This document shows, piece after piece, positions 44,311 to 63,692 of a DNA stretch of 64,000 nucleotides. Made by a program: the position numbers and the translations under genes. Origin of the DNA: a bacterium (GTDB lineage: Bacteria; Krumholzibacteriota; Krumholzibacteriia; LZORAL124-64-63); NCBI GenBank assembly GCA_031441465.1, contig JANOEP010000072.1, forward strand, positions 15,018 through 79,017, read 5' to 3'. The notes below the pieces were generated by a model that made no database searches, was not told where the DNA came from, and saw nothing but the letters and a program-made list of their open reading frames with translations. Each line of letters starts with the position of its first letter. The stretch's first letter is position 1.

Positions 44311-45597
44311 CTAGACGCGGCCGCGCAGGCGGCAGGCCTCGGCCACGCGCTGGATGGCGATCATGTACGCCGCGTCGCGCATGGGCACGTTCTGGGTTTC
44401 GGCGAGGTCGGCCACGCCGTGGAAAGCCTTGGTCATGATGGCGTCGAGGCGCTCCAGGACCTCGTCCTTGGGCCAGAAGTAGTTCATGTTGCACTGGACC
44501 TGCTCGAAGTACGAGCACGTCACGCCGCCGGCGTTGCACAGGAAGTCGGGGATCGTGAAGACGCCGTGGGCGAACAGGACCTCGTCCGCCTCGGGCGTGG
44601 TCGGGCCGTTGGCGCCTTCGGCCATGAACTTCACGCGCTTGCCGATCTTCTTGACCGTCGCGGCGTTGACCTGGTTCTCCAGGGCGCAGGGCAGCAGGAT
44701 GTCGACGTCCTGCTCGATCCAGGCGTCGCCCGGCAGCACCTCGTAGCCGGCGGCCTTGGCCTTGGCCTTGTCGATGCCGCCGAAGCGGTCCGCCATGCCC
44801 TGCAGCTCGTGCAGGTTGATCCCGGACGTCTTCTTGAAGGTATAGCTGGTCTGGTCGCCCTGGTCCCAGCTCGAGACGCAGATCGCGCGGCCGCCCAGCT
44901 TCGTGTACAGCTCGACGCCGTACTGGGAGACGTTGCCGAAGCCCTGGAAGGAGGCCGTGGTCTTGGCGATGTCGACGCCCTTGCGCTTCAGCGCCTCGCG
45001 CAGCGTGTAGACGACGCCGTAGCCGGTCGCCTCGGTGCGGCCCTCGCTGCCGCCCATGCCCAGGGGCTTGCCGGTGATCATGCCGGGGAAGTGGCCGCGG
45101 TGGATCTTCTCGTACTCGTCCATCATCCACAGCATGTGCTGGCCGTTGGTCATCACGTCGGGAGCGGGCACATCCTGGACCGGGCCGATGTAGCCGGAGA
45201 CCTGCTGGACCCAGCCCCGGCACAGCCCTTCCTGCTCGCGCTGGGAGAGGTGGTGGGGGTCGCAGATCACGCCGCCCTTGCCGCCGCCCAGCGGAATGTT
45301 CACCACGGCGCACTTCCAGGTCATCCAGGTGGCCAGCGCGCGCACCGTGTCGACGGTCTCCTGGGGGTGGAAGCGGATGCCGCCCTTGCAGGGGCCGCGC
45401 GCGTCGTTGTGCTGCACGCGGAAACCGCGGAATATCTTCATGCTCCCGTCATCCATGCGCACCGGGACGTTGAACTGGAACTCGCGGTCGGGATTGCGCA
45501 GCAGATCCCGCGTCGCCTGGTCAAGACCCAGCATCTCGGCCACGCGGTCGAACTGCTGCTGGGCCATCGCGAAAGCGTTGAACGACTTGTCGGCCAT
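44311..45597 (-). CDS. gdhA: Glu/Leu/Phe/Val dehydrogenase (glutamate dehydrogenase)
   Basis: RVQHNDARGPCKGGIRF, MTWK, GGGKGG, DVPAPD, ITGKP, ATGYG, EGANGP, NAGGVT.SYFE. Confidence 0.93.
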   Translation of the reverse strand: MADKSFNAFAMAQQQFDRVAEMLGLDQATRDLLRNPDREFQFNVPVRMDDGSMKIFRGFRVQHNDARGPCKGGIRFHPQETVDTVRALATWMTWKCAVVNIPLGGGKGGVICDPHHLSQREQEGLCRGWVQQVSGYIGPVQDVPAPDVMTNGQHMLWMMDEYEKIHRGHFPGMITGKPLGMGGSEGRTEATGYGVVYTLREALKRKGVDIAKTTASFQGFGNVSQYGVELYTKLGGRAICVSSWDQGDQTSYTFKKTSGINLHELQGMADRFGGIDKAKAKAAGYEVLPGDAWIEQDVDILLPCALENQVNAATVKKIGKRVKFMAEGANGPTTPEADEVLFAHGVFTIPDFLCNAGGVTCSYFEQVQCNMNYFWPKDEVLERLDAIMTKAFHGVADLAETQNVPMRDAAYMIAIQRVAEACRLRGRV

Positions 45598-45888
45598 GTC
45601 CTCGCTCCTCGATGAGAAACGTCCCGTGTCCGCGTCTGGATCGGGGCAGGTCCCGGTTCCGGACCCCGGGCCGGGATGGCTCGGGTGCGCGGTGCGGCGC
45701 CGGATGATCCGTCGCCGCAGCCCAAATCTAGGCTCCCGGGGCAGGTCGTCCAAAGAAAAACAGGTCCGCGACGCCGTCGCCGTCGTGAACGGTTCACGGA
45801 CGGCGCCCCGGATCGGGACTTGCCGTCCCGGGAAATCCTGCGTATCCCTGTGATGCTTGTTGCAACAACCTTTATCGGAGGCACCCGC

Positions 45889-46143
45889 ATGGACAAGCCG
45901 AAAATCGCCGACACCCGGCCCAAGGTGCTCGATCTGCAGCCCGGCACCTACTACTACTGCGCCTGCGGCGAATCGCAGAGCCAGCCCTTCTGCGACGGCG
46001 CGCACACGGGCACCGCGTTCGCGCCGCTGAAGTTCGAGATCGCCGAGACCACCCGCGCCGCCCTCTGCCAGTGCAAGCGCTCCCGCGAGGAACCGCACTG
46101 CGACGGCAGCCACAAACTGTACACGCAAGGAGAGACGCGATGA
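45889..46143 (+). CDS. CDGSH iron-sulfur domain protein (two motifs)
   Basis: CACGES..QPFCDGAH and CQCK....PHCDGSH. Confidence 0.92.
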   Translation: MDKPKIADTRPKVLDLQPGTYYYCACGESQSQPFCDGAHTGTAFAPLKFEIAETTRAALCQCKRSREEPHCDGSHKLYTQGETR

Positions 46144-46811: not shown

Positions 46812-49430
46812 CTAGCGCACCATCATGATGCGGCCGACCTTCGTCTCGCCGCCGGCGCGGGCCCGCACAAAGTACACGCCCGAAGGCGCCGTGCGACCGC
46901 TCGTGTCGCGGCCGTCCCAGGTCAGCAGCACCGTGCCGGCCGCGCTGTCGCCGGCGTGGAGGCTGCGCACGACCTGGCCGCGGGCGTTGTAGACGTCCAC
47001 GGTCAGGGCGCCGGCCCGCGGCAGGTTTAACTGGATGCCGGCCCGGTCGCCGGTCACCCCGCCGAGCACCGACAGCCCGAGGCTGCGCAGCGCGTCCCCG
47101 GCGCCGACGATGTACGACTCGTAGAGGAAGCTCCAGGTATCGCCGAGCGGGCCGCGGGCCGTGGGGTCGGCGGCGTAGGCCCGCCACCAGTAGGTGCCGT
47201 CCACGGTGAGGCCCGGGAAGAAGGACGGGGAGGTGAGGCCGTCGGCGCGCGCGGCCAGGTCGGTGCCCAGGGCGTCGCGATAGACGCGGAAGCCGTAGGT
47301 GACCGGGCCGGGGCCGTCGGGATCGGTCGACGTTGCGGCGACGAGCTCGGTGACCGGTCCCAGGGGGCCGCCGTCGTACGGCGACACGAGCGCCGGCGCG
47401 GGCGGCGTCTGGTTCTGCGAGCCCAGGCCGGTCACGATCAGGTCGTCGAGGTACCAGCCGTCGAGGGTGACCGAGGAGTCCGTCTCGAACCGGAAGCGCA
47501 GGTAGACGGACTGGCCGGCGTAGGCGCTCAGGTCGACTTCGGCCTGGGTCCAGGCCGTGATCGTGCCGTTGTACGTCGCCACCGTGGTCCAGGTGGAGTT
47601 GTTGGTCGAGACCTGCACGTAAGCGTAGTCGTAGCCCGACTCGAGCGCGTACTTGTGCCAGAACGACAGCTTGGCGCCGGCCGGCATGGCGATGGGCGTG
47701 TTCAGCGAGGCGTAGGTCGCGCTGTTGTCGACGTAGTCGCCGGCGGGCGAGTCGTGCAGCGAGTGCGTGGCCGAGTGGCTGGAGTTGGTGACCAGGGCCC
47801 AGGTGCCCGTCGTCGTCCAGCCGGCGAAGCCGCTCTCGAAGGTGTTGCTGTAGACCGAGACGGGCAGGCCCGCCGGGTAGTTCAGGGTGAACGAACTGGT
47901 CTGGCCGTCGGCGACCACGGTCACGTGCACGGGCACGCTGTGGGCCGGCGGGACTCCGGCGTCCAGGGTCACGGAGAAGGGCGTCGCCGTCAGCGACAGC
48001 GAGGAGCGGGCGCCGATCGCGCCCACGGTGCGCTGGGCCTCGTGCAGCTGGAGGTAGGGGTCGTCGCTGGACAGCGTCACCGAGACCGAGGAGGCGCCCA
48101 CGGTCACGCCCAGGTTCTCGAGCGTGAAGGCGAGGCCGGCCGTCTCGCCGGGATCCAGGATGGCGTCGCCGTCGCCGCCGACGACCGCCGGGGTCCTGGC
48201 CTGGACGTAGAGTCCGGCCGCCTTGACCTGGTAGAGCGAGGGGAAGAGGTTCTCGGCGAAGAGCGCCGGGATGCGCGACTCGTCGGGCCAGAACCCGTCA
48301 CCGCTGCCGCCGATCTCGTTGGAGAAGGCGAGGCACTCGGGGTGCTCGCTGGTGGCGCCGTAGACCCAGTCGAAGGAGCCGCCGTTGACCGCGTAGAGCA
48401 GGTCGGGCGCCTGGCCGGGTTCGTAGGCGTTGTACTGGCACATGATCGCGGCCATGTGCTGGAAGACCGCCTCGTCGGGCGAGTTGGTGGACGTGTAGCC
48501 CCACGGGTACAGCGTCAGGTTGCTGTAGGTGTGGAAGCTCTGCGAGGTGATGAAGTTGTGCGAGTTGACGAGGGCCATGATCGCCTGGACCTCGCGCTCG
48601 CTGCCGGCCGAGGGGCCGCGGTAGGTGTCGTCGCTGGGGATCGTGCTGCTGCCGCCGCCGACCCACTGGTACGGGTAGTTGCGGTTGGGGTCGACGCCGT
48701 ACGAGCCGTCGCCGTTGGCGCGCCGGTTCTTGCGCCACATGCCGCCGCCGGTCGGGTTGGTCGACTCGTTGTAGAGGAACCCGTCCGGGTTCACGATCGG
48801 CACGATGTAGATCTCGCGGTTGTCGAGCAGCCAGGTGATCTCGGGATCGACGCCGTAATGCGAGCCGAAGTACTCCACGAGCATCGAGGCGGTTTCCGAG
48901 GACATGATCTCGCGGGCGTGGTGCATGGCGTCGAACAGGATCTCGGGCTCGCCCGCCTCGTTGACCTCGGGATTGTCGGAGACGCGGACGCACCAGATCG
49001 CGTTGCCCTGCAGCGTCGTGCCCAGGCTCCACTTGGCGCTGACGACCTCGGGGTACAGGGTGTGCAGCTGGTCGAGCCAGGTGATGGTCTCGGAGTAGGA
49101 ATGGAACAGGCCGAAGTTCAGGCCCCGGTTGCGCGAGGCGTACATCGCCTCCATGTCGGGCTCCACCACTTCGTAGCGCACGCCGGCCTGGTCGAGCCAG
49201 GTCAGGTCCTTGGGCAGGGCCACGATCTCGACGTGGTGGCCGGGTTTGCGGGCCACGATGTCCAGGCCGGGGTTGGTGCTCAGGGCCGCCTCGACGCCCG
49301 TGGCGTCCAGCGCGACGCGCACCAGGGCGTACTTGGGATTCTCGGCCGAGGCGGTGGACGCCAGGCACAGGACGAGCAGCAGGGCTGCCGCGATCAGGGC
49401 GCGGCTTGGGAGATGCAGGCGAATGGACAT
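46812..49430 (-). CDS. M14 zinc carboxypeptidase with beta-sandwich domains and FlgD-Ig/T9SS-like C-terminal domain
   Basis: Signal peptide; HHARE, WRKNRR, DPNRNY, FHTYS; C-terminus VYNARGQVVR.L...WDGRD.SG...SGVYFVR. Confidence 0.92.
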   Translation of the reverse strand: MSIRLHLPSRALIAAALLLVLCLASTASAENPKYALVRVALDATGVEAALSTNPGLDIVARKPGHHVEIVALPKDLTWLDQAGVRYEVVEPDMEAMYASRNRGLNFGLFHSYSETITWLDQLHTLYPEVVSAKWSLGTTLQGNAIWCVRVSDNPEVNEAGEPEILFDAMHHAREIMSSETASMLVEYFGSHYGVDPEITWLLDNREIYIVPIVNPDGFLYNESTNPTGGGMWRKNRRANGDGSYGVDPNRNYPYQWVGGGSSTIPSDDTYRGPSAGSEREVQAIMALVNSHNFITSQSFHTYSNLTLYPWGYTSTNSPDEAVFQHMAAIMCQYNAYEPGQAPDLLYAVNGGSFDWVYGATSEHPECLAFSNEIGGSGDGFWPDESRIPALFAENLFPSLYQVKAAGLYVQARTPAVVGGDGDAILDPGETAGLAFTLENLGVTVGASSVSVTLSSDDPYLQLHEAQRTVGAIGARSSLSLTATPFSVTLDAGVPPAHSVPVHVTVVADGQTSSFTLNYPAGLPVSVYSNTFESGFAGWTTTGTWALVTNSSHSATHSLHDSPAGDYVDNSATYASLNTPIAMPAGAKLSFWHKYALESGYDYAYVQVSTNNSTWTTVATYNGTITAWTQAEVDLSAYAGQSVYLRFRFETDSSVTLDGWYLDDLIVTGLGSQNQTPPAPALVSPYDGGPLGPVTELVAATSTDPDGPGPVTYGFRVYRDALGTDLAARADGLTSPSFFPGLTVDGTYWWRAYAADPTARGPLGDTWSFLYESYIVGAGDALRSLGLSVLGGVTGDRAGIQLNLPRAGALTVDVYNARGQVVRSLHAGDSAAGTVLLTWDGRDTSGRTAPSGVYFVRARAGGETKVGRIMMVR

Positions 49431-49563
49431 CGGGGCCTCCAGCCTCGTGAGGGTCGCGAGAGCCAAGGATTGAGTGTGGCGGGTACTCGATTCTAGCATG
49501 TCCGGCAGATTGATGCCAGAACTCGGTTTTTGTCGTTCAGAGGGGTTGTGGATTCGCGTCCTG

Positions 49564-52520: not shown

Positions 52521-53672
52521 CTATCTAGTGAGTGTCTGTGTTTCGGATGGTTTCTTATTGATCGGCTCCACCCGGATCAAGGTGTCAAAGACCGTGCTGG
52601 CGGCGAGACTCGCACCCGCGTCGGTCAAGTGCACGCTATCAGCGAAGGTGGCATCATCCTTGGGCATGGACGCCTCAAGATCGATCAGCACGTAGCCCAC
52701 ACTATCGCAATGCGCACGTGTGGTATTGGCGAATTCGCGTGAAATGGCCAGCAGTCCGGAGGGTGAGTAACTGGGGAGCCAGTGCTGTCGACCCAGCATG
52801 CCGGCAACGGCCGACTTCGACCCGTCGATGCGCAAACTGTTGGGATAGGTGCTGAACGCCACGTCCACGCCATTCGTGGCAAGTTGTCGGGCCAGTTTGT
52901 CCATGAGTTGGGTGTAGGCCGCCAGGTGTTGTTGCGGCGGCGAGTCGAGGAGCACGGTGGGATTGATGGGGTCGGGATGTCGTATTTTGTTTTTCAGACG
53001 TCGCAGGCCGATGGCGAGGGAGTCCGTCCATTTTTCGGGCAACCGGCTTTTCAGGCAGGCGCGGGCCTTGGGAAGAAATCGCGAGTAATCCCGCATCGTC
53101 GGTTTGCAGGCGGCACGCATGCGGGCGATACGATCAGGATTGGAAAACTCCGTCACTTCGGGCGCAGCCTCGCCATTCATGCCCTGGACGAAGCTGAAAG
53201 GACTGATGACCAAGACGACCAGGTCGGGATGCTGCGGCAATACGTAGTGATCGAGGTAGGCTGCGTATTGGAATGGGGACATGCCGACGACGGAGGCGTT
53301 GGAGCACGCGAACCCATACCGTGCGGAGATCTCAGCCAAGGCGGCGGGCCACTCCCGTCCATAGCTCTCGTAGAGTCCGTAGGATTCGGATGTTCCCAGG
53401 CATATGATGTCGGCCAAGACAGAGTCCGTGGCGGCATGATAGGGGTGTGAGCGGAAACCGCGCTCATCGTGCCGCCATTTCTCGAACCTGATGCCGGGTT
53501 GGTTGAAGGTAAGGCCGCGATCGTCCACCCAACGGAGATTCAACGACCCGTAAAAGGCAAGGGGATCGGCTCGGTAATGAATCCAGTCGTCGGCTCGGGC
53601 AGCGATCTCGAAGGTAACCCCCACTAGGATGCAGGCTATCGATAATCGAATCAGTCTGCGGGCGCGTCCCAT
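52521..53672 (-). CDS. SGNH-hydrolase-like protein (polysaccharide O-acylation partner)
   Basis: N-terminal TM, ERGFRS, LGTSESYG, FADSVHL; AT-richer; adjacent to MBOAT. Confidence 0.75.
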   Translation of the reverse strand: MGRARRLIRLSIACILVGVTFEIAARADDWIHYRADPLAFYGSLNLRWVDDRGLTFNQPGIRFEKWRHDERGFRSHPYHAATDSVLADIICLGTSESYGLYESYGREWPAALAEISARYGFACSNASVVGMSPFQYAAYLDHYVLPQHPDLVVLVISPFSFVQGMNGEAAPEVTEFSNPDRIARMRAACKPTMRDYSRFLPKARACLKSRLPEKWTDSLAIGLRRLKNKIRHPDPINPTVLLDSPPQQHLAAYTQLMDKLARQLATNGVDVAFSTYPNSLRIDGSKSAVAGMLGRQHWLPSYSPSGLLAISREFANTTRAHCDSVGYVLIDLEASMPKDDATFADSVHLTDAGASLAASTVFDTLIRVEPINKKPSETQTLTR

Positions 53673-53685
53673 GCAACCACCTACC

Positions 53686-55113
53686 TCAGAACTGGGCGTA
53701 GATAAAAGATTGCGTTTGCACGCCGAGAATGAAGACAGCGTAGGCTGCAAGGGCGATCAGGATGGGCTTACTCCACCAGGGAAGCCGGGCGCTTCCCAAC
53801 AGGCGGGGGTTCTCTTCCTTGCCGGCGAGTACGTCGATCAACATCATCAGAACTGCCAAGGGGGCGACTGTCGTCAGGAATGATCGCCATTCCCCGGCTC
53901 CGTCGGTGATGCCGCCCTTCAAAGCCGAGGTGAGTTGTCCTGGTCCATCGGCACGAAAGATCAGCCAGCCGACGCACACCAGTGAGAACGTGAGCGCGAT
54001 CTCGGTGGCGTGCCGCAGCCGGCCCCGCAAGCGCAACCGGCGGCGCAGCCGCTTCAACGACGGCTGTAGGACGCGGTGCCCCACCAGCAGCAGCCCGAAA
54101 TACAGTCCCCACAGCACGAACATCCACGAGGCGCCGTGCCAGAGGCCGGCCACGAGCATCGTGATCACCAGGTTCAGGTACGCGCGGCCGCGGGAGCGGA
54201 AGGCGCCGCCCAGCGGCAGGAACACGTAGTCGCGCAGCCAGGACGACAGGGACATGTGCCAGCGCTGCCAGAACTCGCTGGGGCTGTGCGCCGCGTACGG
54301 GGTGCGGAAGTTGATCGCGAGGTCGAAGCCGAGGCAGGCGGCGAACCCGCGCGCGATGTCCGTGTAGCCGGAGAAGTCGGCGTAGATGAAGAACGCGTAG
54401 GTGACGGCCGCCAGGGCCGCAGCTCCCGTGCTCGTGAAATCGCCGGCGAAAGCCCGGTCGACGGCGACGGCCAGATGATTGGCGATGACGAGCTTCTTGA
54501 TGACTCCCGCGAACAGCAGATCGCCGCCGCGGCGCAGGGAGGCCAGCAGAGGCGGGCGGGCGGTGGGGTCCAGTTGGGCGAGGAACGGTTGCGGCCGGTC
54601 GATGGGCCCCGCGGTCAGGGATGGGAAAAACAGAAGATAGATGGCGTGGTGGAGGGGCGTGGGCGCGACCGGCAGTCGGCCGAGGTACGCTTCGGCCTGG
54701 ATGGAAATGGCCTTCAGGCAGAAGTAGGACAGGCCCAGGGGGACGGCGATCTCCAGCGTGAGCGGCGCCGTGGTCAGGCCGACGGCCTGCAGGACGGCGC
54801 GGCCGCTGTCGATGAAGAATCCGAAATACTTGAACACGAACAGCAGAATGCACTGGAACGCGATGCCGGCCCGCAGGACGGCGCGGCGCCTGGCCGCGGG
54901 CGGCGTTGCGGCCGGTTGCGTGATGCTGCGGACGACGGCGTGATTGACCATCGCCGCGGCGAGCAGCAGTGCGAGCAGCCGTACGTCCCAGATCGCATAG
55001 AAAAGGACACTGGCGGCCAGCAACACCCAGGAACGGACGCGAGACGGCGCCAGCCAGTAGGCTGCGGCGACGACCGCCATGAACAGGATGAAGCCGGCGG
55101 ACAACAAGTTCAT
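53686..55113 (-). CDS. MBOAT O-acyltransferase (AlgI/DltB-like)
   Basis: PLGLSY, FFP.L.AGPI, YADFSGY.DIA, NF..PY, EFWQRWHMSLS, GLWHGA. Confidence 0.93.
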   Translation of the reverse strand: MNLLSAGFILFMAVVAAAYWLAPSRVRSWVLLAASVLFYAIWDVRLLALLLAAAMVNHAVVRSITQPAATPPAARRRAVLRAGIAFQCILLFVFKYFGFFIDSGRAVLQAVGLTTAPLTLEIAVPLGLSYFCLKAISIQAEAYLGRLPVAPTPLHHAIYLLFFPSLTAGPIDRPQPFLAQLDPTARPPLLASLRRGGDLLFAGVIKKLVIANHLAVAVDRAFAGDFTSTGAAALAAVTYAFFIYADFSGYTDIARGFAACLGFDLAINFRTPYAAHSPSEFWQRWHMSLSSWLRDYVFLPLGGAFRSRGRAYLNLVITMLVAGLWHGASWMFVLWGLYFGLLLVGHRVLQPSLKRLRRRLRLRGRLRHATEIALTFSLVCVGWLIFRADGPGQLTSALKGGITDGAGEWRSFLTTVAPLAVLMMLIDVLAGKEENPRLLGSARLPWWSKPILIALAAYAVFILGVQTQSFIYAQF

Positions 55114-55754
55114 CGGTTCACCACGATCCGCGACCAGTCCTCGAAATCACCGCCGTCGGGCGCCGCGGCCGGTGCGACCATGCCGCGCAGCCCGGCCTCG
55201 GGCAGCCACAGGGCGCGTTCCGGTTCGGCCTGCCCGCTGACGGTCGCCAACAACTCCTCATCGGAGCCCGCGATCCCGTCCAGGTCGATGCGGAAGACCA
55301 CCCCGAAGTGCACGCTCGACACGTCCTGCGCGTCTGAGTTGATGAACCCGATCGGCGACAGGGCCGTGGCCTCCACGATCAAGCCGGTCTCCTCGACCAG
55401 TTCCCGCAGCGCGCTCACGGCCAGCAGCCCGTGCGCGGCGACGGCCGGGTCGTCGCGGTCCAGGGGCTCGACGTGCCCGCCGAAGCCCACCGACCACAGG
55501 CCGCCGAGGCGGCGCTCGGTGTGCTTGCTGCGGCGCTGGTAGCAGAGGACGCGGGCGCGCGGCCCCTCACCGCGGTGCAACACCAGGTAGGGGATGATCT
55601 GCTTGTAGTGGGAGTTGCGCTCCATGTACTCGCGCTCGGCGAAGAACAGGTGCGGCAGCAGGGCGTCGAGGTCGACGCTGCCCGGCGGCAGGAACCCCTG
55701 CGGGCTCAGGCCTGGGAACAGGTGCTTGCGTTCGACGACCAGGATGCTGCGCAC
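55110..55754 (-). CDS. Predicted NUDIX-family phosphoesterase
   Basis: EYMERN..YKQIIPY, ERRLGG.WSVGFGGH, RELVEE, GFINSD...VSSVHFG. Confidence 0.8.
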   Translation of the reverse strand: MRSILVVERKHLFPGLSPQGFLPPGSVDLDALLPHLFFAEREYMERNSHYKQIIPYLVLHRGEGPRARVLCYQRRSKHTERRLGGLWSVGFGGHVEPLDRDDPAVAAHGLLAVSALRELVEETGLIVEATALSPIGFINSDAQDVSSVHFGVVFRIDLDGIAGSDEELLATVSGQAEPERALWLPEAGLRGMVAPAAAPDGGDFEDWSRIVVNR

Positions 55755-55791
55755 GCGACGGCCTTTCGCCGGAGTGAAGTGGACGGGCCGG

Positions 55792-56604
55792 TCAGCCGCG
55801 CAGCCGCGCGGTCGCCTGGCGGAAGCGGTCCTGGTAGCGGTTGCGCGGCGAGTTGCCGAGATCGTACAGCGTGATCTCGGTGCGGGCGCGCGCGATCCGC
55901 TCTTCGGTCGCCGGGTGGGTGCTGAACCAGCCGGCGGCGCCGCTCGCGCCTTCCCCGTTCATGTCGACCAGCGTCTGGAAGAAGCGCAGGATGCCCTCGG
56001 GATCGTAGCCCGCGGCGACCAGGTACTTGACGCCGAACTGGTCGGCTTGGAATTCGTGGTCGCGGCTGTTCTTCATCGTGAACAGGCCGGCTCCCAGGCC
56101 GGCCACCTGCTGCCAGGCGGCGCCCTGGGTGTCGCCCAGCAGCAGCTCGGCGGCCATCTGCATGCCCATCGTCTGCTGGATCTGGCGCACGGAATGGCGG
56201 CCGATGACGTGGCCCAGCTCGTGGGCCATCACGCCGGCCAGCTCGGACTCGTCGTGCGCGGCCTTCAGCAGTCCGGTGGTCACGTAGATGTAGCCCCCGG
56301 GGGCGGCGAAGGCGTTGACGATGTCGCTTTCCAGCAGCGTGAAGGTGTAGGCGACGTCTTTGCGCTCGCTGTGCGCGGCCACGCGCGCGCCCACCTCGGC
56401 GACGTAGGCGTTCAGGGCGGCGTCCCGGTGGGGCGGGTACTCCAGGCGGATCCCGCGGTCGGTCTCCACGCCCATCTGGATTTCGGTGGGGGTGTCGATC
56501 AGGATCAGGCTCTGCTCGCCGTGCGGGCCGGTGGTGGCGCAGCCCGCCAGCAGGGCCAGGGTCAGCGCCAGCGCGGCCGCCGTGTCACGAAGCGGGTGTC
56601 TCAT
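55792..56604 (-). CDS. M48 family metalloprotease lipoprotein (BepA/LoiP-like)
   Basis: Lipobox LAG-C; NAFAAPGG, AHELGH, E.QAD, STHP...RI; in-frame ATGs also at 56619 and 56634. Confidence 0.92.
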   Translation of the reverse strand: MRHPLRDTAAALALTLALLAGCATTGPHGEQSLILIDTPTEIQMGVETDRGIRLEYPPHRDAALNAYVAEVGARVAAHSERKDVAYTFTLLESDIVNAFAAPGGYIYVTTGLLKAAHDESELAGVMAHELGHVIGRHSVRQIQQTMGMQMAAELLLGDTQGAAWQQVAGLGAGLFTMKNSRDHEFQADQFGVKYLVAAGYDPEGILRFFQTLVDMNGEGASGAAGWFSTHPATEERIARARTEITLYDLGNSPRNRYQDRFRQATARLRG

Positions 56605-56640
56605 GGTCTGTCTCCTCATGGTCGGTCTCCTCATGGTAGG
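56596..56640 (-). repeat. 15-bp tandem repeat carrying ATG plus Shine-Dalgarno
   Basis: ACCATGAGGAGAC(C/A)G units; ATGs at 56634, 56619 and 56604. Confidence 0.75.
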
Positions 56641-57872
56641 AACGCCCTCACGTCGCCCAGCTTGCGGGGCAGGTATTCGTCGATGACGTAGTTGAGGCCG
56701 TGCTTGGCCAGGGCCTGCTGCTCCGCGCGTACTCCCATCTTAACCATTTGATGCAGCGCCAGCTGCCACGGCTTGTGGTGCAGGATGAACGGGTCGTTCT
56801 TCAGGGCGTCCTTGGCCCGCTTGATGTCCACGTCCTTCAGGGGATGGGTAGGCAGGTCGTAGTCGATGATGTCCTGCGGGGTGATGCCCAGGAACCGGGC
56901 CTGCGGCACGCAGAAGAACTCGTTCAGGTGGGCGGCGTTGCCGCTGCCGACCTTGAGCGTGCGGTAGATGTTGGAGAATCCGTAGGGGTCGCCGTCGACG
57001 AAGACGTAGACCGGGATGTTCTTCTCGTCGGCCAGCCGGCGCACGAAGCGGCGGCAGGCGCGCGTGGGCACGCCCCCGAGCGAGACCAGCACGCAGTTGG
57101 CCTGCTTCCAGTAGTTGTGCTTCACCAGGCGCTGGAACATGCCAGCTGTCTCGATGCAGAGGATGAAGTCGGCGTCGGTCTCGAAGCCGAGCGTCTCGAC
57201 CGAGATGGGGATCGAGTAGGCCCCGCTGCCGAACCGGGTGCAGTCGATGCGCAGCGTCTCGCCGGTGTCGCGGTCCTGGTCGATGACCACCAGCCGGCCG
57301 GCCACGTCGCCGCCCTTCTCCTCGGGCACGAAGCCGAGCTGCTCGCGGTTGACCCCGAAGAACGCCTCGACGTCCTCCATGACCGCGTCGGACTCGGGCT
57401 GCTCCTTGAAGCGCGCCTCCGCCCAGTTCTTGCTGACGTAGTAGGCTTCTCGCTTGGTGGCGATGTCGTCGGTGCGGACCAGCTCCTGCGACAGGGACAT
57501 CATCTTGAGCGTCTGGGCGAAGGTCTTGACCGTGCTGACGGTCAGGGTGCGCTCCTTCTCGCGGCCCTTCAGCTCGAAGTAGCCCACGCCGGGCCGGTAG
57601 GTCACGTTCTGCAGCGAGCGCACCGGGAAGCGCAGCGTCGGCTTGATGCCCTTCAGGATGCTCGTGCGGACGTCGCCCGCCTCCTTGGCGATGCGGCGCA
57701 GCAGGGGCTCGACGCCGGTCGGCGGGTCGGCCCGGCGCGCGGCGCGCCCCGGCGCGGCCTTCTTCGCGGCGGCTTTCGGCGCCGTCTTCGGCGCCGGTTT
57801 CGACGGCAGGGGCGGCCGGGCGGAGCCGAAGGCCAGCTCGGGCTGCTCGCGGTCGGGTTTCTTCTCGGGCAC
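56631..57872 (-). CDS. top6A: DNA topoisomerase VI subunit A (Spo11 family)
   Basis: TKREAYY catalytic Tyr, F.EQ.ESD..MEDVE, TOPRIM CIETAG.F, GGVP...CRRF, DGDPYG, EQQA; GTG after an RBS. Confidence 0.93.
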   Translation of the reverse strand: MPEKKPDREQPELAFGSARPPLPSKPAPKTAPKAAAKKAAPGRAARRADPPTGVEPLLRRIAKEAGDVRTSILKGIKPTLRFPVRSLQNVTYRPGVGYFELKGREKERTLTVSTVKTFAQTLKMMSLSQELVRTDDIATKREAYYVSKNWAEARFKEQPESDAVMEDVEAFFGVNREQLGFVPEEKGGDVAGRLVVIDQDRDTGETLRIDCTRFGSGAYSIPISVETLGFETDADFILCIETAGMFQRLVKHNYWKQANCVLVSLGGVPTRACRRFVRRLADEKNIPVYVFVDGDPYGFSNIYRTLKVGSGNAAHLNEFFCVPQARFLGITPQDIIDYDLPTHPLKDVDIKRAKDALKNDPFILHHKPWQLALHQMVKMGVRAEQQALAKHGLNYVIDEYLPRKLGDVRAFLP

Positions 57873-57901
57873 GACGTTCTCCCAGTCTCCCGCCGGGCGG
57901 G

Positions 57902-59395
57902 TCAGACGGCGTACAGCGCGCCGAACTTGGCGCGCAGGTAGTCGAGGTACGGGCCGGCGCCGGGTTCGCGGCCCGTCGCCGCGCGCACCAGTTCCCGCGG
58001 CGCGAGTTCGCGGCCGCGGCGGTGGATGTGCTCCCGCAGCCAGGATAGCAGCGGCAGGAAGTCGCCGCGCGCGACGTCGTCGTCCAGGCCGGGCATGGCC
58101 CGCCGCGCCGCGAGGTGCAGTTCGGCCGCGTAGAGGTTGCCCAGGGCGTAGGTCGGGAAGTAACCGAACAGGCCGAAGGACCAGTGGATGTCCTGCAGGA
58201 CGCCCTCGGCGTCGTCGGCCGGGACCACGCCCAGGTCCGCGCGCATCCGCTCGTTCCACAGCGAGGGCAGGTCGGCGACGTCGATTTCCGAACGCAGCAG
58301 CGCCCGCTCCAGCTCCATGCGCAGCACGATGTGCAGGGTGTAGGTCACCTCGTCGGCCTCGATGCGGATCGCCGAGGGGCGCACCACGTTGACGGCGCGG
58401 TCGAGCTGCTCGGGCGCGACGCCGTCGAAGCGCCCCGGGAAGTGCCGGCGCAGCAGCGGCAGCAGGTAGCTCATGAAGGCGCGCGAGCGCCCGATCTGGT
58501 TCTCCCACAGTCGCGACTGGGACTCGTGGACGCCCAGGCTCACGGCCTCGCCCAGGGGCAGGCCGACCTGGTCGGCGGGCAGGCCCTGCTCGTACATGCC
58601 GTGGCCCGCTTCGTGGATCGTGGAGTAGAGGGACTTCTGAAGGTCGTCGGCGTCGTAGTGGGTCGTCAGGCGCACGTCGCCCGGCGCGATCTGCGTGGAG
58701 AAGGGGTGGGCCGAGAGGTCCAGCCGCCCGCCCTCGAGGTCGAAGCCCAGGTCCTTCAGGACGTGGCGGCCCAGGGCGTCCTGGGCCGCGACCGGCAGGT
58801 TCCCGTGCAGCAGGTCTTCGCCGCGGTCGGCGGGGTCGCGGCGCGCGGCCTCGACCAGCGGCACCAGCGCGGTGCGCACCTCGGTGAAGATCCGCGCCAG
58901 GTCGGCGGCGCGGGCGCCCGGCTCGTACTCGTCCAGCAACGCGTCGTACGGTTCGTCCTGGTAGCCCAGAGCCTCGGCCTCGCGGCGCTTCAGGCCGACG
59001 ATGCGCCCCAGCAGCGGCGCGAACAGCGGCCACTCGTTGCGGGAGCGCGCGTCGACCCAGGCCTGCTGCGCCAGCGTGGTGGTCTCGGCCAGTTCGGTGA
59101 CCAGGTCGCGCGGCACGCGCACGGCGCGCCGGTAGTCCCGCAGGGATTCGCGCACGTTGGCCGCCGCGGCGGCGTCCAGGCCCGCGCCGCCGAGTTTCTC
59201 CAGCAGCGCGCCCAGGGCGGGGTCGGTGGCGCGGTCGTGCACCAAGCCGGCCAGCGCCGCGCGCGTCGTGGATCGCGACGCGAGGCCGCGCGGCGGCATC
59301 AGCGTCTCCTGGTCCCAGGACAGCAGCGACAGGGCCGAGTTCAGGGCCTGGATCTCCGACATGCGTTCACGGTACCGGGCATAGGCTTCGTTCAT
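57902..59395 (-). CDS. M32 carboxypeptidase (carboxypeptidase Taq)
   Basis: LSWDQET..P, YDALLDEYEPG, HPF, DVRLTT, HEAGH, HESQSRLWEN, IRIEADE, LQDIHW, YFPTYALG. Confidence 0.95.
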   Translation of the reverse strand: MNEAYARYRERMSEIQALNSALSLLSWDQETLMPPRGLASRSTTRAALAGLVHDRATDPALGALLEKLGGAGLDAAAAANVRESLRDYRRAVRVPRDLVTELAETTTLAQQAWVDARSRNEWPLFAPLLGRIVGLKRREAEALGYQDEPYDALLDEYEPGARAADLARIFTEVRTALVPLVEAARRDPADRGEDLLHGNLPVAAQDALGRHVLKDLGFDLEGGRLDLSAHPFSTQIAPGDVRLTTHYDADDLQKSLYSTIHEAGHGMYEQGLPADQVGLPLGEAVSLGVHESQSRLWENQIGRSRAFMSYLLPLLRRHFPGRFDGVAPEQLDRAVNVVRPSAIRIEADEVTYTLHIVLRMELERALLRSEIDVADLPSLWNERMRADLGVVPADDAEGVLQDIHWSFGLFGYFPTYALGNLYAAELHLAARRAMPGLDDDVARGDFLPLLSWLREHIHRRGRELAPRELVRAATGREPGAGPYLDYLRAKFGALYAV

Positions 59396-59426
59396 GGTCG
59401 CTCCCGTAGTCGTGGCGTGGACGCCG

Positions 59427-61115
59427 TCAAACCTTGCGGCTGCGTTCCAGGGTGTCGGTGAGCGTGGTGATGATCTCCGCCCGCTCGCCCTCGTCCAGGT
59501 GCAGCATGTCGCGCAGCGCGTCGCCGATGTGGGGGATGTACTTCTGGATATAGCCCTGCTTCTTCAGCGCCTCGCGCTCGCGCACGCGGCGGCGGATGTG
59601 GATCTGCAGCTGCCGGCCGGCCTCCTGGAGCGCCAGCTTGATCTCCTTGACGATCTCCGGGTAGTGGGCCACCGCCTCCTTGCTCTCCGAGGTGAACGGC
59701 ACCCAGACCGACGCCATGTGCACGAAGATCACCAGCGGACCCGACGGCAGCGCGCCCCGGGACTGCTGCAGGCCGTAGCTGCGCCAGTTGTTGGTCAGCA
59801 CGGCCTTGTGGATGGCGCAGGCCGAAGCCTGGTAGAGCAGGGGCACGCGGTTGGCGAAGCGCAGCACCTGGGCCAGGTCGTCGGCGGGCAGGCCGCCGCC
59901 GTAGGCCAGGCCCACCTCCACCTGGAAGGGGTTGCCGCGGTAGACCGACGGCGGGCGGGTGACGGCCGTGGTGAACTCGGCCTCGAGGCGCTGGCGCAGC
60001 CCGGCCAGGATCAGCGGTTCGCCGATGGGCGAGAGGCAGTCGGTCGGAGGGCTGGGGATCTTCGTGGCGGCGATGGCGTCCATCAGCCGTTGGACCTCGT
60101 CCTGGTCGGTGTGGCGCGGCGATTTGGTCGGCGCCAGGCCGGCGGTCTCGAGGATCTGATCGGCGGTCTTGGGGCCGACCCGGCAGAACTCGTGGCGCAG
60201 GAAGCCCGTCAGGTTGCGCTGCTTGGTCTCCTTGAGCATCCGCAGCAGCATGCCCAGCTCCACGCCGTAGGGGTGGGGCTGGATCTCGTGGGCCTCGACG
60301 GGCAGCTCGGCGGCGGCCCGCGGGTAGATCATCTCGTCGCCGCGCGGCGAGCGGTAGATCAGCCGCACGTGCGGGTTCGCGACGGCGGTCTGCTGGAGGT
60401 AGACGTCGACCGAGTGCTGGCCGCGCTTGTAGGAGCCGGTCAGCTCGATCTCGACGCGGGTGCCGTGGGGGCGATCCCAGTCGCACTCCTCGTCCTTCTG
60501 GACGACCGGCTCGTTCTTCTTCATGTCCAGCAACAGCTCGAAGCGGTGGCCGCGGTCCTGCTGGGCGGTGCGGCTGACGATCACCACCGGCTTGCCGGTC
60601 GTGAGCTGCCCGTACATGCCGGCGGCCGAGATGCCGATGCCCTGCTGGCCGCGACTCTGGCGCAGGCTGTGGAACTTCGACCCGTACAACAACTTGCCGA
60701 AGATGCGCGGCACCTGCTGGCGCACGATGCCCGGGCCGTTGTCCTCCACGACGACCCGGTAGCGCTCCTCCTTGACCGGGGCGACGGCGCCCTTGCGGCG
60801 CGACGGCTTCTCCGGTTCGGCTTCCAGTTCCAGAACCGTCTCGAACTCGGCGCCGTTGCGTTTGCCGTTGCCCACCGGCTGGATCTCGACCAGCACTTCG
60901 GGCAGGATGCCGGCCTCCTCGCAGGCGTCCAGGGAGTTGTCGACGGCCTCCTTGATGGTCGTCATCAGCGCCTTGGCGGGCGAATCGAACCCCAGCAGGT
61001 GGCGGTTCTTGGTGAAGAACTCGCTGATGGAGATCTCGCGCTGCTTCTCGGCCATGCTCTGGGCGGTGGCGGCGACCCGGGGTGGTCGCCGGGAGGGTTT
61101 CGCGGCAGCGGGCAT
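59427..61115 (-). CDS. top6B: DNA topoisomerase VI subunit B
   Basis: ISEFF.KN...[35 protein letters not shown] (GHKL), H2TH segment, [25 protein letters not shown]. Confidence 0.95.
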
Positions 61116-61230
61116 GGGGATCCTTCCTGGTCTCCCAAGGGGGCGGTCCGTCGGATCCGCTAAGACTATAGGCAGCCGTCCGGGAGATCAAGAATGCAAA
61201 CGGGCGACGAGCGCCGGCGGGGCGCAACGC

Positions 61231-62205
61231 CTAACGGTAGAAGGACTTGATGGTGCCCCAGGCCGTCGTCTCGTTGGGGACGATCCCGTCCGTGCAGACC
61301 GACTGCAGGAAATAGAACCCGTCGAATTCGCCCGACGGGGGCTGGGCGGCGTCCACGGCCAGGTAGTAGGTGTGGCGAGCGCCGGTGAGGTTGCGGTAGA
61401 CGAGGACTTCCGACGTTCCGGAGACGCCGTCGTCGGCGAAGGCGACGCAGTCGGCCGTCGCTTCGCAGCCGTCGAAGAGCCACAGCGCGGCGTCGAAGGA
61501 CTGCTCCTGCAGCGTGAGCGTCGCCCGGGCGCTGTCGGCCAGGCTCACCGCGTACCAACGTTCGCCGCCCGCCTCGAGGTACTCCGCGCAGGTATTCGTG
61601 AAGAGCTGGTTGGGCAGGCCGTAGAGGCTGCCCTCTGCGGTGGCGGCCTCCGTCCGGCAGAGCAGGGGCGTGGCGGTCGCGCAGACCTCCGGCGGCACCC
61701 CCGAGGCGAAGGCCCGCACCGTCAGGCTCCAGGGGCCGGCGGCGCCCAGGTAACCATCGATCACCACGACCCAGGGGTCGAGCCGGCCTTCGACCTCGAC
61801 CTCGAACTCGCGGGTGTGGTGGGCCACGCACAGGTCGCTGTCGCAGCCCGAGAGCAGGAAGAGGTCCAGGTCGACGGTGGATTCCAGGATCAGGTGCAGC
61901 GTGACCGGGGAAGGGACGTCCAACAGCAGCACCGACTCGGGGCCGCTCTCGTTCCAGCCGACGCAGCCGTAGCCGTCGACGACCGAGGCGCCGGCTGTGG
62001 TGTCGCCGGTGATCACGGTGTCCAGGCCCGGGGCGACGGTCAGGACGGGGGCGCTGGCGCAGCCGGGGTCGCCGGCGCGCAGGGTGGAGGAGGGGGGGAG
62101 GTCGGGGCGGTCGGTGGTCTTGGGGACGCGGAAGGAGGGGGGGGCGGCCGCAGCGGCCGTCACCAGGCACAAGGCCAAGGCGGCGCAGAACTTGCTTGCT
62201 CTCAT
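61231..62205 (-). CDS. Secreted protein with two Cys-rich PPC-like repeats and C-terminal AWGTIKSFYR tail
   Basis: Signal peptide; duplicated unit C.....C...E......DL(D/A)L(F/W)L..GC....C; shared tail. Confidence 0.8.
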   Translation of the reverse strand: MRASKFCAALALCLVTAAAAAPPSFRVPKTTDRPDLPPSSTLRAGDPGCASAPVLTVAPGLDTVITGDTTAGASVVDGYGCVGWNESGPESVLLLDVPSPVTLHLILESTVDLDLFLLSGCDSDLCVAHHTREFEVEVEGRLDPWVVVIDGYLGAAGPWSLTVRAFASGVPPEVCATATPLLCRTEAATAEGSLYGLPNQLFTNTCAEYLEAGGERWYAVSLADSARATLTLQEQSFDAALWLFDGCEATADCVAFADDGVSGTSEVLVYRNLTGARHTYYLAVDAAQPPSGEFDGFYFLQSVCTDGIVPNETTAWGTIKSFYR

Positions 62206-62366
62206 CGTGGCAGTCGACACGGGTCGCCTCCGGTTCGGGTGACCGTTGGAACCCCTTGAAATTGGCGGGGTTCCGTGAAATCACATTTAGCGCTTGTCCG
62301 GTTGATCGGGTACACTACTTTCCCGTTTCCGGCCGCCGCCCACACCAGACACGGATACCGTACCAC

Positions 62367-63692
62367 ATGCTGAACCGCTCGCTCTACCTCATGTCGTCCA
62401 AGCTGCTGGGTTACGGCGTGCGGTTGATCCTGCCGTATTTCCTGGTGCGCCTGCTGACCGTGGCGGATTTCGGCGCCTACCGGCAGTTCTTCCTGCTCGA
62501 GGTCTACATCGCGTCGCTCTTCCAGCTCGGGCTCAACCAGGCGCTGTACTATTTCATCCCGCGGGACCTTCGTAACGCCGGAGCGTATTTTCTCAATAGC
62601 GTGCTGATGAACGTGGTCGTCTTCTCGGTGGCATTCGCGGTGATCGCTTCGTTCGTGACACCGTTGAGCGGCTGGTTGAACATGGCGATCCTGAAGGAAG
62701 CTTTCTGGTTGCTGGCCGTCTATACCGTGTTGCTGATGCTGGTTTCGGCCTGCGACTGCTACTTGACTGCCCGACAGATGGTCAAGGCTTCGGCGGCGTT
62801 TGAAATCTTCGGGCAGGTAGTCGTCAGTGCGGCCACAGTGGCTGCAGCCTATGCCACGCGCAGGCTGGACTCGGTGCTCCTTGGTTTGGTCGCTGCCAGG
62901 GCCCTCCACCTGATCGTCATGCTTGCGTACATTCACCTCAAGTTGCACGGGTTCAAGGCGGATCGATATTTTTTCGGTATTACTGAGCAGATTCGCTACG
63001 GAGTGGTGCTGGGTGTGGCCGGCATGCTGTGGACGCTGATGATGCGGATGCATGAGTTCTTCGTCAGCCGTTACTATGGGACCGAGACCTACGCTCTTTA
63101 CTCGGTCGGCTGTACGGAAATTCCCATCATCCAGATCTTCACGCAGTCGCTGGCCGTGGTGGTTCTCGGCCAGTTCGCGATGCTCGATCAACAACGGGAT
63201 TGGGATGGTATCCGTGCGCTATGGAAACGCGTGCTGACGAGTACCTACGCCGTGACGATCCCCGCCACGCTTATATTCGTCCTGTTGGCGAAGCCACTGA
63301 TTGTCTTCATGTTCACCGATAGTTATGCAGCCGCGGTCCCGATCTTCCAGATCAACACGCTGCTCAAGCTACACTTCATCTTCAATGCGTCCCTGGTGCT
63401 GCGGGCCATGAACCGAAACGACGTTTCTATTTGGGTCAACATCGCCACGCTGGTAATCACGCCTGTACTGCTTTATGCGGGCATGAAATTGGGCGGTCTG
63501 GTCGGGATCATCTCCGCGCAGGCGGTGCTGATGATCGGCAGCCGGATCGCGACCACGATCATGATGAATCGACTCACGAGCGTCTACCTGCCCTATACCG
63601 TGAGGGTTCGGGATCTGATTGAGTTTTACAGGGATACTTGGGCCAAAGGTCGTAACACGATCGCGACACGCATGCGTCGCGACCCTGCTTGA
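62367..63692 (+). CDS. Oligosaccharide flippase family protein (Wzx-like)
   Basis: PYFLVRLL.VADFGAY, LGLNQALYYF, many TM helices; AT-richer. Confidence 0.85.
   Translation: MLNRSLYLMSSKLLGYGVRLILPYFLVRLLTVADFGAYRQFFLLEVYIASLFQLGLNQALYYFIPRDLRNAGAYFLNSVLMNVVVFSVAFAVIASFVTPLSGWLNMAILKEAFWLLAVYTVLLMLVSACDCYLTARQMVKASAAFEIFGQVVVSAATVAAAYATRRLDSVLLGLVAARALHLIVMLAYIHLKLHGFKADRYFFGITEQIRYGVVLGVAGMLWTLMMRMHEFFVSRYYGTETYALYSVGCTEIPIIQIFTQSLAVVVLGQFAMLDQQRDWDGIRALWKRVLTSTYAVTIPATLIFVLLAKPLIVFMFTDSYAAAVPIFQINTLLKLHFIFNASLVLRAMNRNDVSIWVNIATLVITPVLLYAGMKLGGLVGIISAQAVLMIGSRIATTIMMNRLTSVYLPYTVRVRDLIEFYRDTWAKGRNTIATRMRRDPA

Follow-up and report, generated by a model that had tools for sequence, protein, structure and literature searches.

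Topoisomerase VI genes separated by an M32 carboxypeptidase gene in Krumholzibacteriia: a likely decatenase and a probable co-inherited passenger

The window analyzed here is a stretch of 64,000 nucleotides (assembly GCA_031441465.1, contig JANOEP010000072.1, positions 15,018 to 79,017 of the forward strand) of a Krumholzibacteria metagenome-assembled genome (MAG; 3.49 Mb in 74 contigs, 96.8% complete). It includes the genes of the two subunits of topoisomerase VI (topo VI), top6B and top6A, and between these the gene of an M32 (Taq-type) zinc carboxypeptidase. The explanation favoured as a whole, with a probability of about 0.75, is that topo VI is here a vertically inherited enzyme, likely a decatenase, and that the M32 gene is an old passenger co-inherited with it. 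An earlier note on the window had described three genes on one strand with gaps of 31 and 29 nt, intact catalytic motifs and an overlapping M48 peptidase gene, and this layout, on the minus strand, was confirmed by the open reading frames (ORFs) and by family scans (Table 1).

The enzyme belongs to topo VI by all sequence-level criteria except the scores of narrow NCBIfam Top6A sub-models, and appears to be a genuine A2B2-type topoisomerase VI. Top6B matched the NCBIfam model NF003218 with 702 bits (cut-off 274) and the transducer family PF09239 with 205 bits, PF02518 and PF13589 also matching, and it aligned with the M. mazei chain 2Q2E_B of the PDB with 520 bits. The GHKL ATPase boxes were all present (N-box, G1 as DNGPGI, G2 as GQQGIG), and the transducer lysine was found in a SESK motif at residue 479. 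In Top6A three Pfam domains scored above cut-off: PF21180 (Toprim, 201 bits), PF20768 and PF04406 (winged-helix CAP, 61 bits). With the Top6A of M. jannaschii (PDB 1D3Y) it shared 60% identity over 301 residues (398 bits). The catalytic tyrosine, Tyr145 in REAYY, was aligned with Y103 of M. jannaschii, and the metal-binding residues of the Toprim domain, E241 in IETAGMF and D293/D295 in DGDPYG, with E197 and D249/D251 of 1D3Y. Top6A remained below the curated equivalog cut-off, the best NCBIfam model, NF003337, giving 493 bits against the required 675; these models are narrow sub-models.

Compared with the archaeal enzymes (1D3Y; M. mazei 2Q2E; S. shibatae 2ZBK), the catalytic tyrosine, the Toprim E/DxD residues, the N, G1 and G2 boxes and the transducer lysine are thus all conserved, while the bacterial host, the basic tail of 55 residues in Top6A, an insertion of about 37 residues in Top6B and the separation of the subunit genes set the present system apart. 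The insertion, which is charged, covers Top6B residues 83–119 (window 60759-60869) in the GHKL domain, as judged against M. mazei Top6B. It is probably a variable loop, because the relatives at loci L026 and L049 show a longer gap at the same point. The alignment of Top6B with the M. mazei chain stops before the C-terminal part of the latter, at about chain residue 499 of 621.

Also the peptidase gene appears complete. The M32 protein matched PF02074 with 577 bits over model positions 2–489 of 489, and its Pfam match spans just this model, with no extra domain or tail; the match with PDB 7A03 reached 465 bits. All six signature motifs of the family are intact (HPF, DVRLT, HEAGH, HES, IRIEADE and GVLQDIHW), and in the complete orthologues checked no more than one of the six is missing, most having the full set. 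As a full-length, single-domain protein with the whole motif set it resembles other M32 carboxypeptidases (7A03, 5WVU/3HOA, 1K9X, 3HQ2), from which it differs in genomic position alone.

The class survey comprised 61 Krumholzibacteriia genomes of 8 families and 45 genera, the family of the window contributing 37 and the other seven families 24. Topo VI-B was detected in 55 genomes of the 61, among them every one of the 37 from the window's family. The source genome itself has one PF00521 (GyrA/ParC-type) match, adjoining one PF00204 (GyrB/ParE-type) match, and one PF01131 (type IA) match. A single PF00521 gene was present in 60 of the 61 genomes; the extra matches in four genomes were fragments of one gene, and the only genome with no match, G028, is 68% complete. 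The earlier note had proposed a check for parC/parE and gyrA/gyrB, and profile searches found no parC/parE pair in the source assembly or in the 60 relatives, GyrA/ParC-type genes being counted across the relatives. GyrA-box motifs were found in the GyrA of two genera (QGRGGKG and QRRGGKG/QRRGGRG; genomes G004 and G033), and therefore the single type IIA enzyme is gyrase. This evidence was taken from relatives because the C-terminal domain of the source genome's own GyrA was sought across the assembly and not found.

Because the lineage has one gyrase, one type IA topoisomerase and no topoisomerase IV (topo IV), topo VI is most likely the decatenase. It would perform the ATP-dependent decatenation of daughter chromosomes and also relax positive supercoils, as topo IV does elsewhere. 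Such a function in place of topo IV is plausible and has already been proposed (PMC11302465). Of the suggestion in the earlier note that topo VI possibly replaces topo IV, the part that stood is the absence of topo IV from the class; the replacement itself is something we infer, and six class genomes lack both enzymes.

These six genomes (all four of family f3, one of f7 and one of f4), each with one gyrase, also bear on another explanation, according to which topo VI is an accessory enzyme with a narrower task, for instance the relaxation of positive supercoils at highly transcribed regions or a function under stress, while gyrase alone unlinks the chromosomes, as it does in gyrase-only bacteria. 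Their gene content favours this explanation, but the level of conservation of topo VI argues against it. Between two genera the identities were 82% for Top6A, 81% for Top6B, 79% for GyrA, 80% for GyrB and 59% for M32. Since the values of the topo VI subunits match those of GyrA and GyrB, topo VI is as constrained as gyrase, at a housekeeping level. Its retention in every genome of the window's family points in the same direction, and PMC8837201 presents archaeal topo VI as a preferential decatenase. An accessory role is hence considered unlikely.

The full-length M32 gene was found in 28 of the 37 genomes of the window's family, each time directly after top6B. It was missing from the remaining nine, and none of the 24 genomes sampled from the seven other families had it. 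M32 did not co-occur with topo VI throughout the lineage, as 27 of the 55 topo VI-bearing genomes had no M32 at all (9 in the window's family, 18 in the others). Even two congeners differed in this respect, G036 having the gene and G013 not. In the orthologous loci the gap between top6B and M32 varied from -4 to 66 nt and that between M32 and top6A from -8 to 87 nt, apart from two loci in which it reached 684 and 893 nt. Thus the order top6B–M32–top6A, which the earlier note had suggested surveying across the lineage, is not unique to the source genome and recurs across the window's family.

A Top6B tree of 91 sequences recovered the window's family as one clade with 100% support, in which the M32-bearing lineages made up a basal grade and the M32-less ones were nested within. 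On this tree M32 requires no fewer than three changes of state, a single gain at the family's base followed by two or more losses. Comparison of the M32 tree with the Top6B tree showed 23 of 29 splits in common and no strongly supported conflict, and therefore M32 has co-diverged with topo VI. Remnants of M32 were sought in the M32-less loci of the window's family and none were found, which leaves nothing from which to date the losses. That a resident M32 gene had moved to the topo VI junction was considered and rejected, the M32-less members of the class having no M32 anywhere; therefore gain or loss involved the whole gene. In one genome of the window's family (G015) a second, partial M32 fragment was observed away from topo VI (C40:72290-72742; an open frame of 157 aa covering model positions 339–489).

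Vertical inheritance is claimed only within the window's family, because deeper in the tree some class families group with Acidobacteriota-labelled sequences. Top6B of the class family f6 was placed together with sequences labelled Thermoanaerobaculia and Multivoradales (seen at loci L018, L020, L091 and L110), and Top6A was 78–80% identical across these labels. Other Krumholzibacteriia- and Latescibacterota-labelled sequences formed a third clade. This pattern points to either inter-phylum transfer or unreliable MAG labels.

The three unlinked M32 genes that were checked (P0111, P0073 and P0081) belonged to a clade with 99% support, from which the topo VI-linked M32s were separate. Their gene neighbourhoods are different ones and contain no topo VI. 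P0111 and P0073 adjoin an M19 dipeptidase gene, one of them being also near M17 and S15 peptidase genes, and P0081, which comes from a short contig, has a protein kinase gene as its neighbour. Where labelled, the closest unlinked homologues carry unreliable names (e.g. Latescibacteria and Planctomycetota). The history that we favour would begin in the ancestor of the family, where one M32 gene, related to the M32 genes of ordinary peptide-catabolism neighbourhoods, would have been inserted into a short top6B–top6A spacer. It would since then have been inherited together with the topoisomerase genes and now and then cleanly deleted. Since the gaps in the window are about 30 nt and have no terminator-like site within, M32 is probably co-transcribed with the topo VI genes. 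M32 is best understood as a working peptidase but a passenger, because topo VI evidently manages without it, both in the genomes sampled from the other families and in the family members that have deleted it.

The position of the gene could alternatively be under selection. M32 would then be a functional partner of topo VI, which either trims or matures a subunit terminus or ties the level of the decatenase to peptide nutrition. Consistent with a partnership, the position and the tight spacing have been kept in the 28 family genomes, M32 co-diverges with Top6B, and M32 occurs nowhere else in these genomes; in the source genome, too, the gene adjoining top6B is the sole match. Against it speak the persistence of topo VI without M32 both inside and outside the family, the congeners G013 and G036, which differ only in M32, and the absence from M32 of any domain or tail beyond the Pfam model. 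Furthermore, the rate of evolution of M32 is about double that of the topo VI subunits, none of the nearest unlinked M32 genes examined adjoins topo VI, two of them being among peptidase genes, and other lineages carry unrelated cargo at the same junction. A partnership is therefore regarded as very improbable. The earlier note had left the choice between a passive insertion and a conserved partner; what was upheld is one ancient insertion, since then conserved and co-diverging, while the peptidase turned out to be dispensable to topo VI.

The cargo at the top6B–top6A junction was diverse. A SAM-methyltransferase-like ORF is present between the subunit genes besides M32 at L050 (7058-7900). 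At L075 (3572-8125, Thermoanaerobaculia) the junction holds the gene of a PilZ protein of 1212 aa and a DNA-alkylation-repair gene, and at L084 (3684-7670, Multivoradales) Fic, DAO (FAD oxidoreductase) and MFS transporter genes on the opposite strand. The junction is permissive and tolerates unrelated cargo.

Several points weigh against the explanation of topo VI as the decatenase and M32 as its passenger. As both topo VI and topo IV are missing from six genomes of the class, gyrase alone can suffice there, and decatenation in the class does not strictly depend on topo VI. The statement that there is one gyrase mainly rests on the relatives, the source genome's own gyrA being an anomalous fragment (C53:2-1414) with 58% identity to the GyrA of a congener, at a contig end outside the window (G000 C53:1-3355, locus L115). 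The gyrB beside it is 93% identical to that of the congener and diverges only near the 3' end; the fragment probably arose from a chimeric joining within a conserved part of gyrB, or else is a foreign gyrA. Co-transcription is deduced from spacing and absent terminators, and a search for RNA runs with the locus returned DNA metagenomes only. That M32 has been kept at the exact spot in 28 of 37 genomes over a long divergence would also be expected under selected co-expression. Finally, the trees were quick single-gene trees rooted with outgroups.

A type IIB topoisomerase in a bacterial chromosome, as proposed in the earlier note, was borne out by the context of the locus, which includes a TonB-dependent receptor and a BepA-like M48 peptidase. 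The cluster could in principle be an artefact, either of an archaeal or chimeric contig or of a recent insertion of a mobile element carrying topo VI. Two observations might be taken in favour of this, the 60% identity of Top6A with that of M. jannaschii and the chimeric appearance of another contig end (C53) in the same MAG. Against it, the order orf329–top6B–M32–top6A–M48–NUDIX recurs in independent MAGs of other studies (L034, L035 and L037), in which the proteins of the topo VI, M32 and M48 genes are 92–97% identical. The stretch with the cluster is also present in two freshwater-sediment DNA runs, the flanks are bacterial, the G+C content of the window (about 70%) is uniform at about 0.69–0.72, and no integrase or repeats were seen around the cluster. 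An archaeal or chimeric contig was rejected by the synteny in the independent MAGs and by the bacterial flanks, and an artefact of any of these kinds has a negligible probability. Neither an order unique to this genome combined with parCE nor an archaeal or chimeric contig, the outcomes named in the earlier note as contrary to it, was found.

The basic tail of Top6A contains the peptide QPELAF, whose location at residues 10–15 supports the GTG start assigned to top6A. The pattern Q-x-[E/S]-[L/I]-x-F was found in 46 of the 48 distinct Top6A tails of the window's family, against 0.01 expected by shuffling, and the two remaining tails carry QASLF and QGELEL. The rest of the tails is variable, Lys/Ala/Pro-rich sequence (loci L009–L107). 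Outside the window's family the pattern is largely missing (5 of 37 tails of other loci). Peptides that bind the beta sliding clamp follow a consensus of the QL[SD]LF or QLxLxL type and lie in disordered regions, and Q-x-E-L-x-F appears to resemble them. A more daring explanation builds on this likeness: topo VI would be a replication-coupled decatenase replacing topo IV, with the Q-x-E-L-x-F peptide docking on the beta clamp. The A2B2 enzyme would then assemble with no need for adjacent genes, by which the top6B–top6A junction would have turned into a permissive slot, and an M32 gene in this slot would have gained constitutive, growth-linked expression. This is a tentative proposal, and rather doubtful as a whole. 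A literature search linking topo VI to a clamp-binding motif gave nothing relevant. The tail peptide is nevertheless the only lead that might change thinking on how bacterial topo VI works.

Bacterial topo VI was reportedly treated already by Forterre and Gadelle in 2009. The more recent account of Allen and Maxwell (2024; PMC11302465) lists 17 bacterial families with topo VI, 10 of them without topo IV, and places one bacterial topo VI cluster next to Methanococcales. Outside Pseudomonadota and Terrabacteria, the bacteria of this cluster have no topo IV. The same paper gives the rationale of topo VI as a specialised decatenase where topo IV is absent, and mentions unpublished work in which M. 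mazei topo VI rescued a parE(ts) mutant of E. coli. The enzyme of the window resembles those of the Methanococcales-near cluster in being a two-subunit type IIB topoisomerase of archaeal acquisition that occurs alongside gyrase, and in the premature end of the Top6B alignment to M. mazei; the 60% identity to M. jannaschii Top6A is consistent with this cluster. Unlike in the cluster, a peptidase gene separates the subunit genes, and Top6A has a basic tail with the Q-x-E-L-x-F peptide. Krumholzibacteriota are not among the 17 listed families, whereas the enzyme is near-universal in the class studied here, and the literature was searched for topo VI in this phylum with no relevant result.

Bacterial topo VI, its archaeal origin and the argument from the absence of topo IV are thus already published, and what is new is the phylum, the near-universality in the class and the family-specific split gene order. 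The range of bacterial topo VI is extended to the whole uncultured class Krumholzibacteriia, in which the enzyme shows conservation at the level of gyrase and never occurs together with topo IV, and the class is thereby a comparatively clean natural example in favour of the published idea of topo VI as a bacterial decatenase. The split operon further indicates that the subunit genes need not adjoin and that their junction repeatedly takes up unrelated genes, which is useful for annotation pipelines seeking adjacent top6B/top6A pairs. The M32 peptidase itself adds no new biology.

Table 1. Features of the topo VI locus and its neighbourhood, in window positions.
Feature	Positions	Strand	Description
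Cys-rich protein gene (orf329)	61231-62220	minus	329 aa, upstream of top6B
top6B	59427-61115	minus	topoisomerase VI ATPase subunit, 562 aa
top6B–M32 spacer	59396-59426	minus	31 nt
M32 (Taq-type) zinc carboxypeptidase gene	57902-59395	minus	497 aa, between top6B and top6A
M32–top6A spacer	57873-57901	minus	29 nt, contains GGGAG ribosome-binding site
top6A	56631-57872	minus	Spo11-like DNA-cleaving subunit, 413 aa, GTG start preceded by GGGAG
Top6A N-terminal tail	57708-57872	minus	residues 1–55, basic, Pro/Ala/Lys-rich, outside PDB and Pfam matches
QPELAF peptide	57828-57845	minus	Top6A residues 10–15, in basic tail
M48 metallopeptidase gene	55792-56634	minus	PF01435, 131 bits; BepA-like domain; lipoprotein-type signal (LLAGC)
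NUDIX hydrolase gene	55110-55754	minus	PF00293
MBOAT gene	53686-55113	minus	beyond the NUDIX gene, downstream of top6A

The mechanical ORF list included an ORF of 800 aa at 56631-59033, which was rejected as a spurious upstream extension of top6A; such extensions are common in DNA of 70% G+C. Positions 53000-62600 were scanned for promoters and terminators and showed no sigma-70-like site, the scan being uninformative for this phylum, and in the same scan neither spacer held a promoter- or terminator-like site (for the M32–top6A spacer on the minus strand). The gap of 115 nt between the Cys-rich gene and top6B is likely the promoter region. Pfam and NCBIfam scans gave no match for the Cys-rich protein.

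In the window's family the Cys-rich orf329 is the usual gene upstream of top6B and the NUDIX gene lies directly 3' of top6A in nearly all loci, in both cases with or without M32. Neither gene was found in the fetched flanks of loci outside the family. The M48 gene, which overlaps the stop of top6A by 4 nt in the window, adjoins top6A in only 14 of the 80 fetched loci, all 14 of them M32-bearing. It represents a further insertion, more recent than that of M32, which separates top6A from the NUDIX gene. At L048 the M48–NUDIX pair was observed 3.4 kb further downstream. Elsewhere in the window, an M14 carboxypeptidase with MAM-like and FlgD-Ig domains (46812-49499) and a long glutamate dehydrogenase gene (44311-46128) are located nearby; these neighbours fit a peptide-degrading lifestyle, which the M32 and M48 genes would suit.

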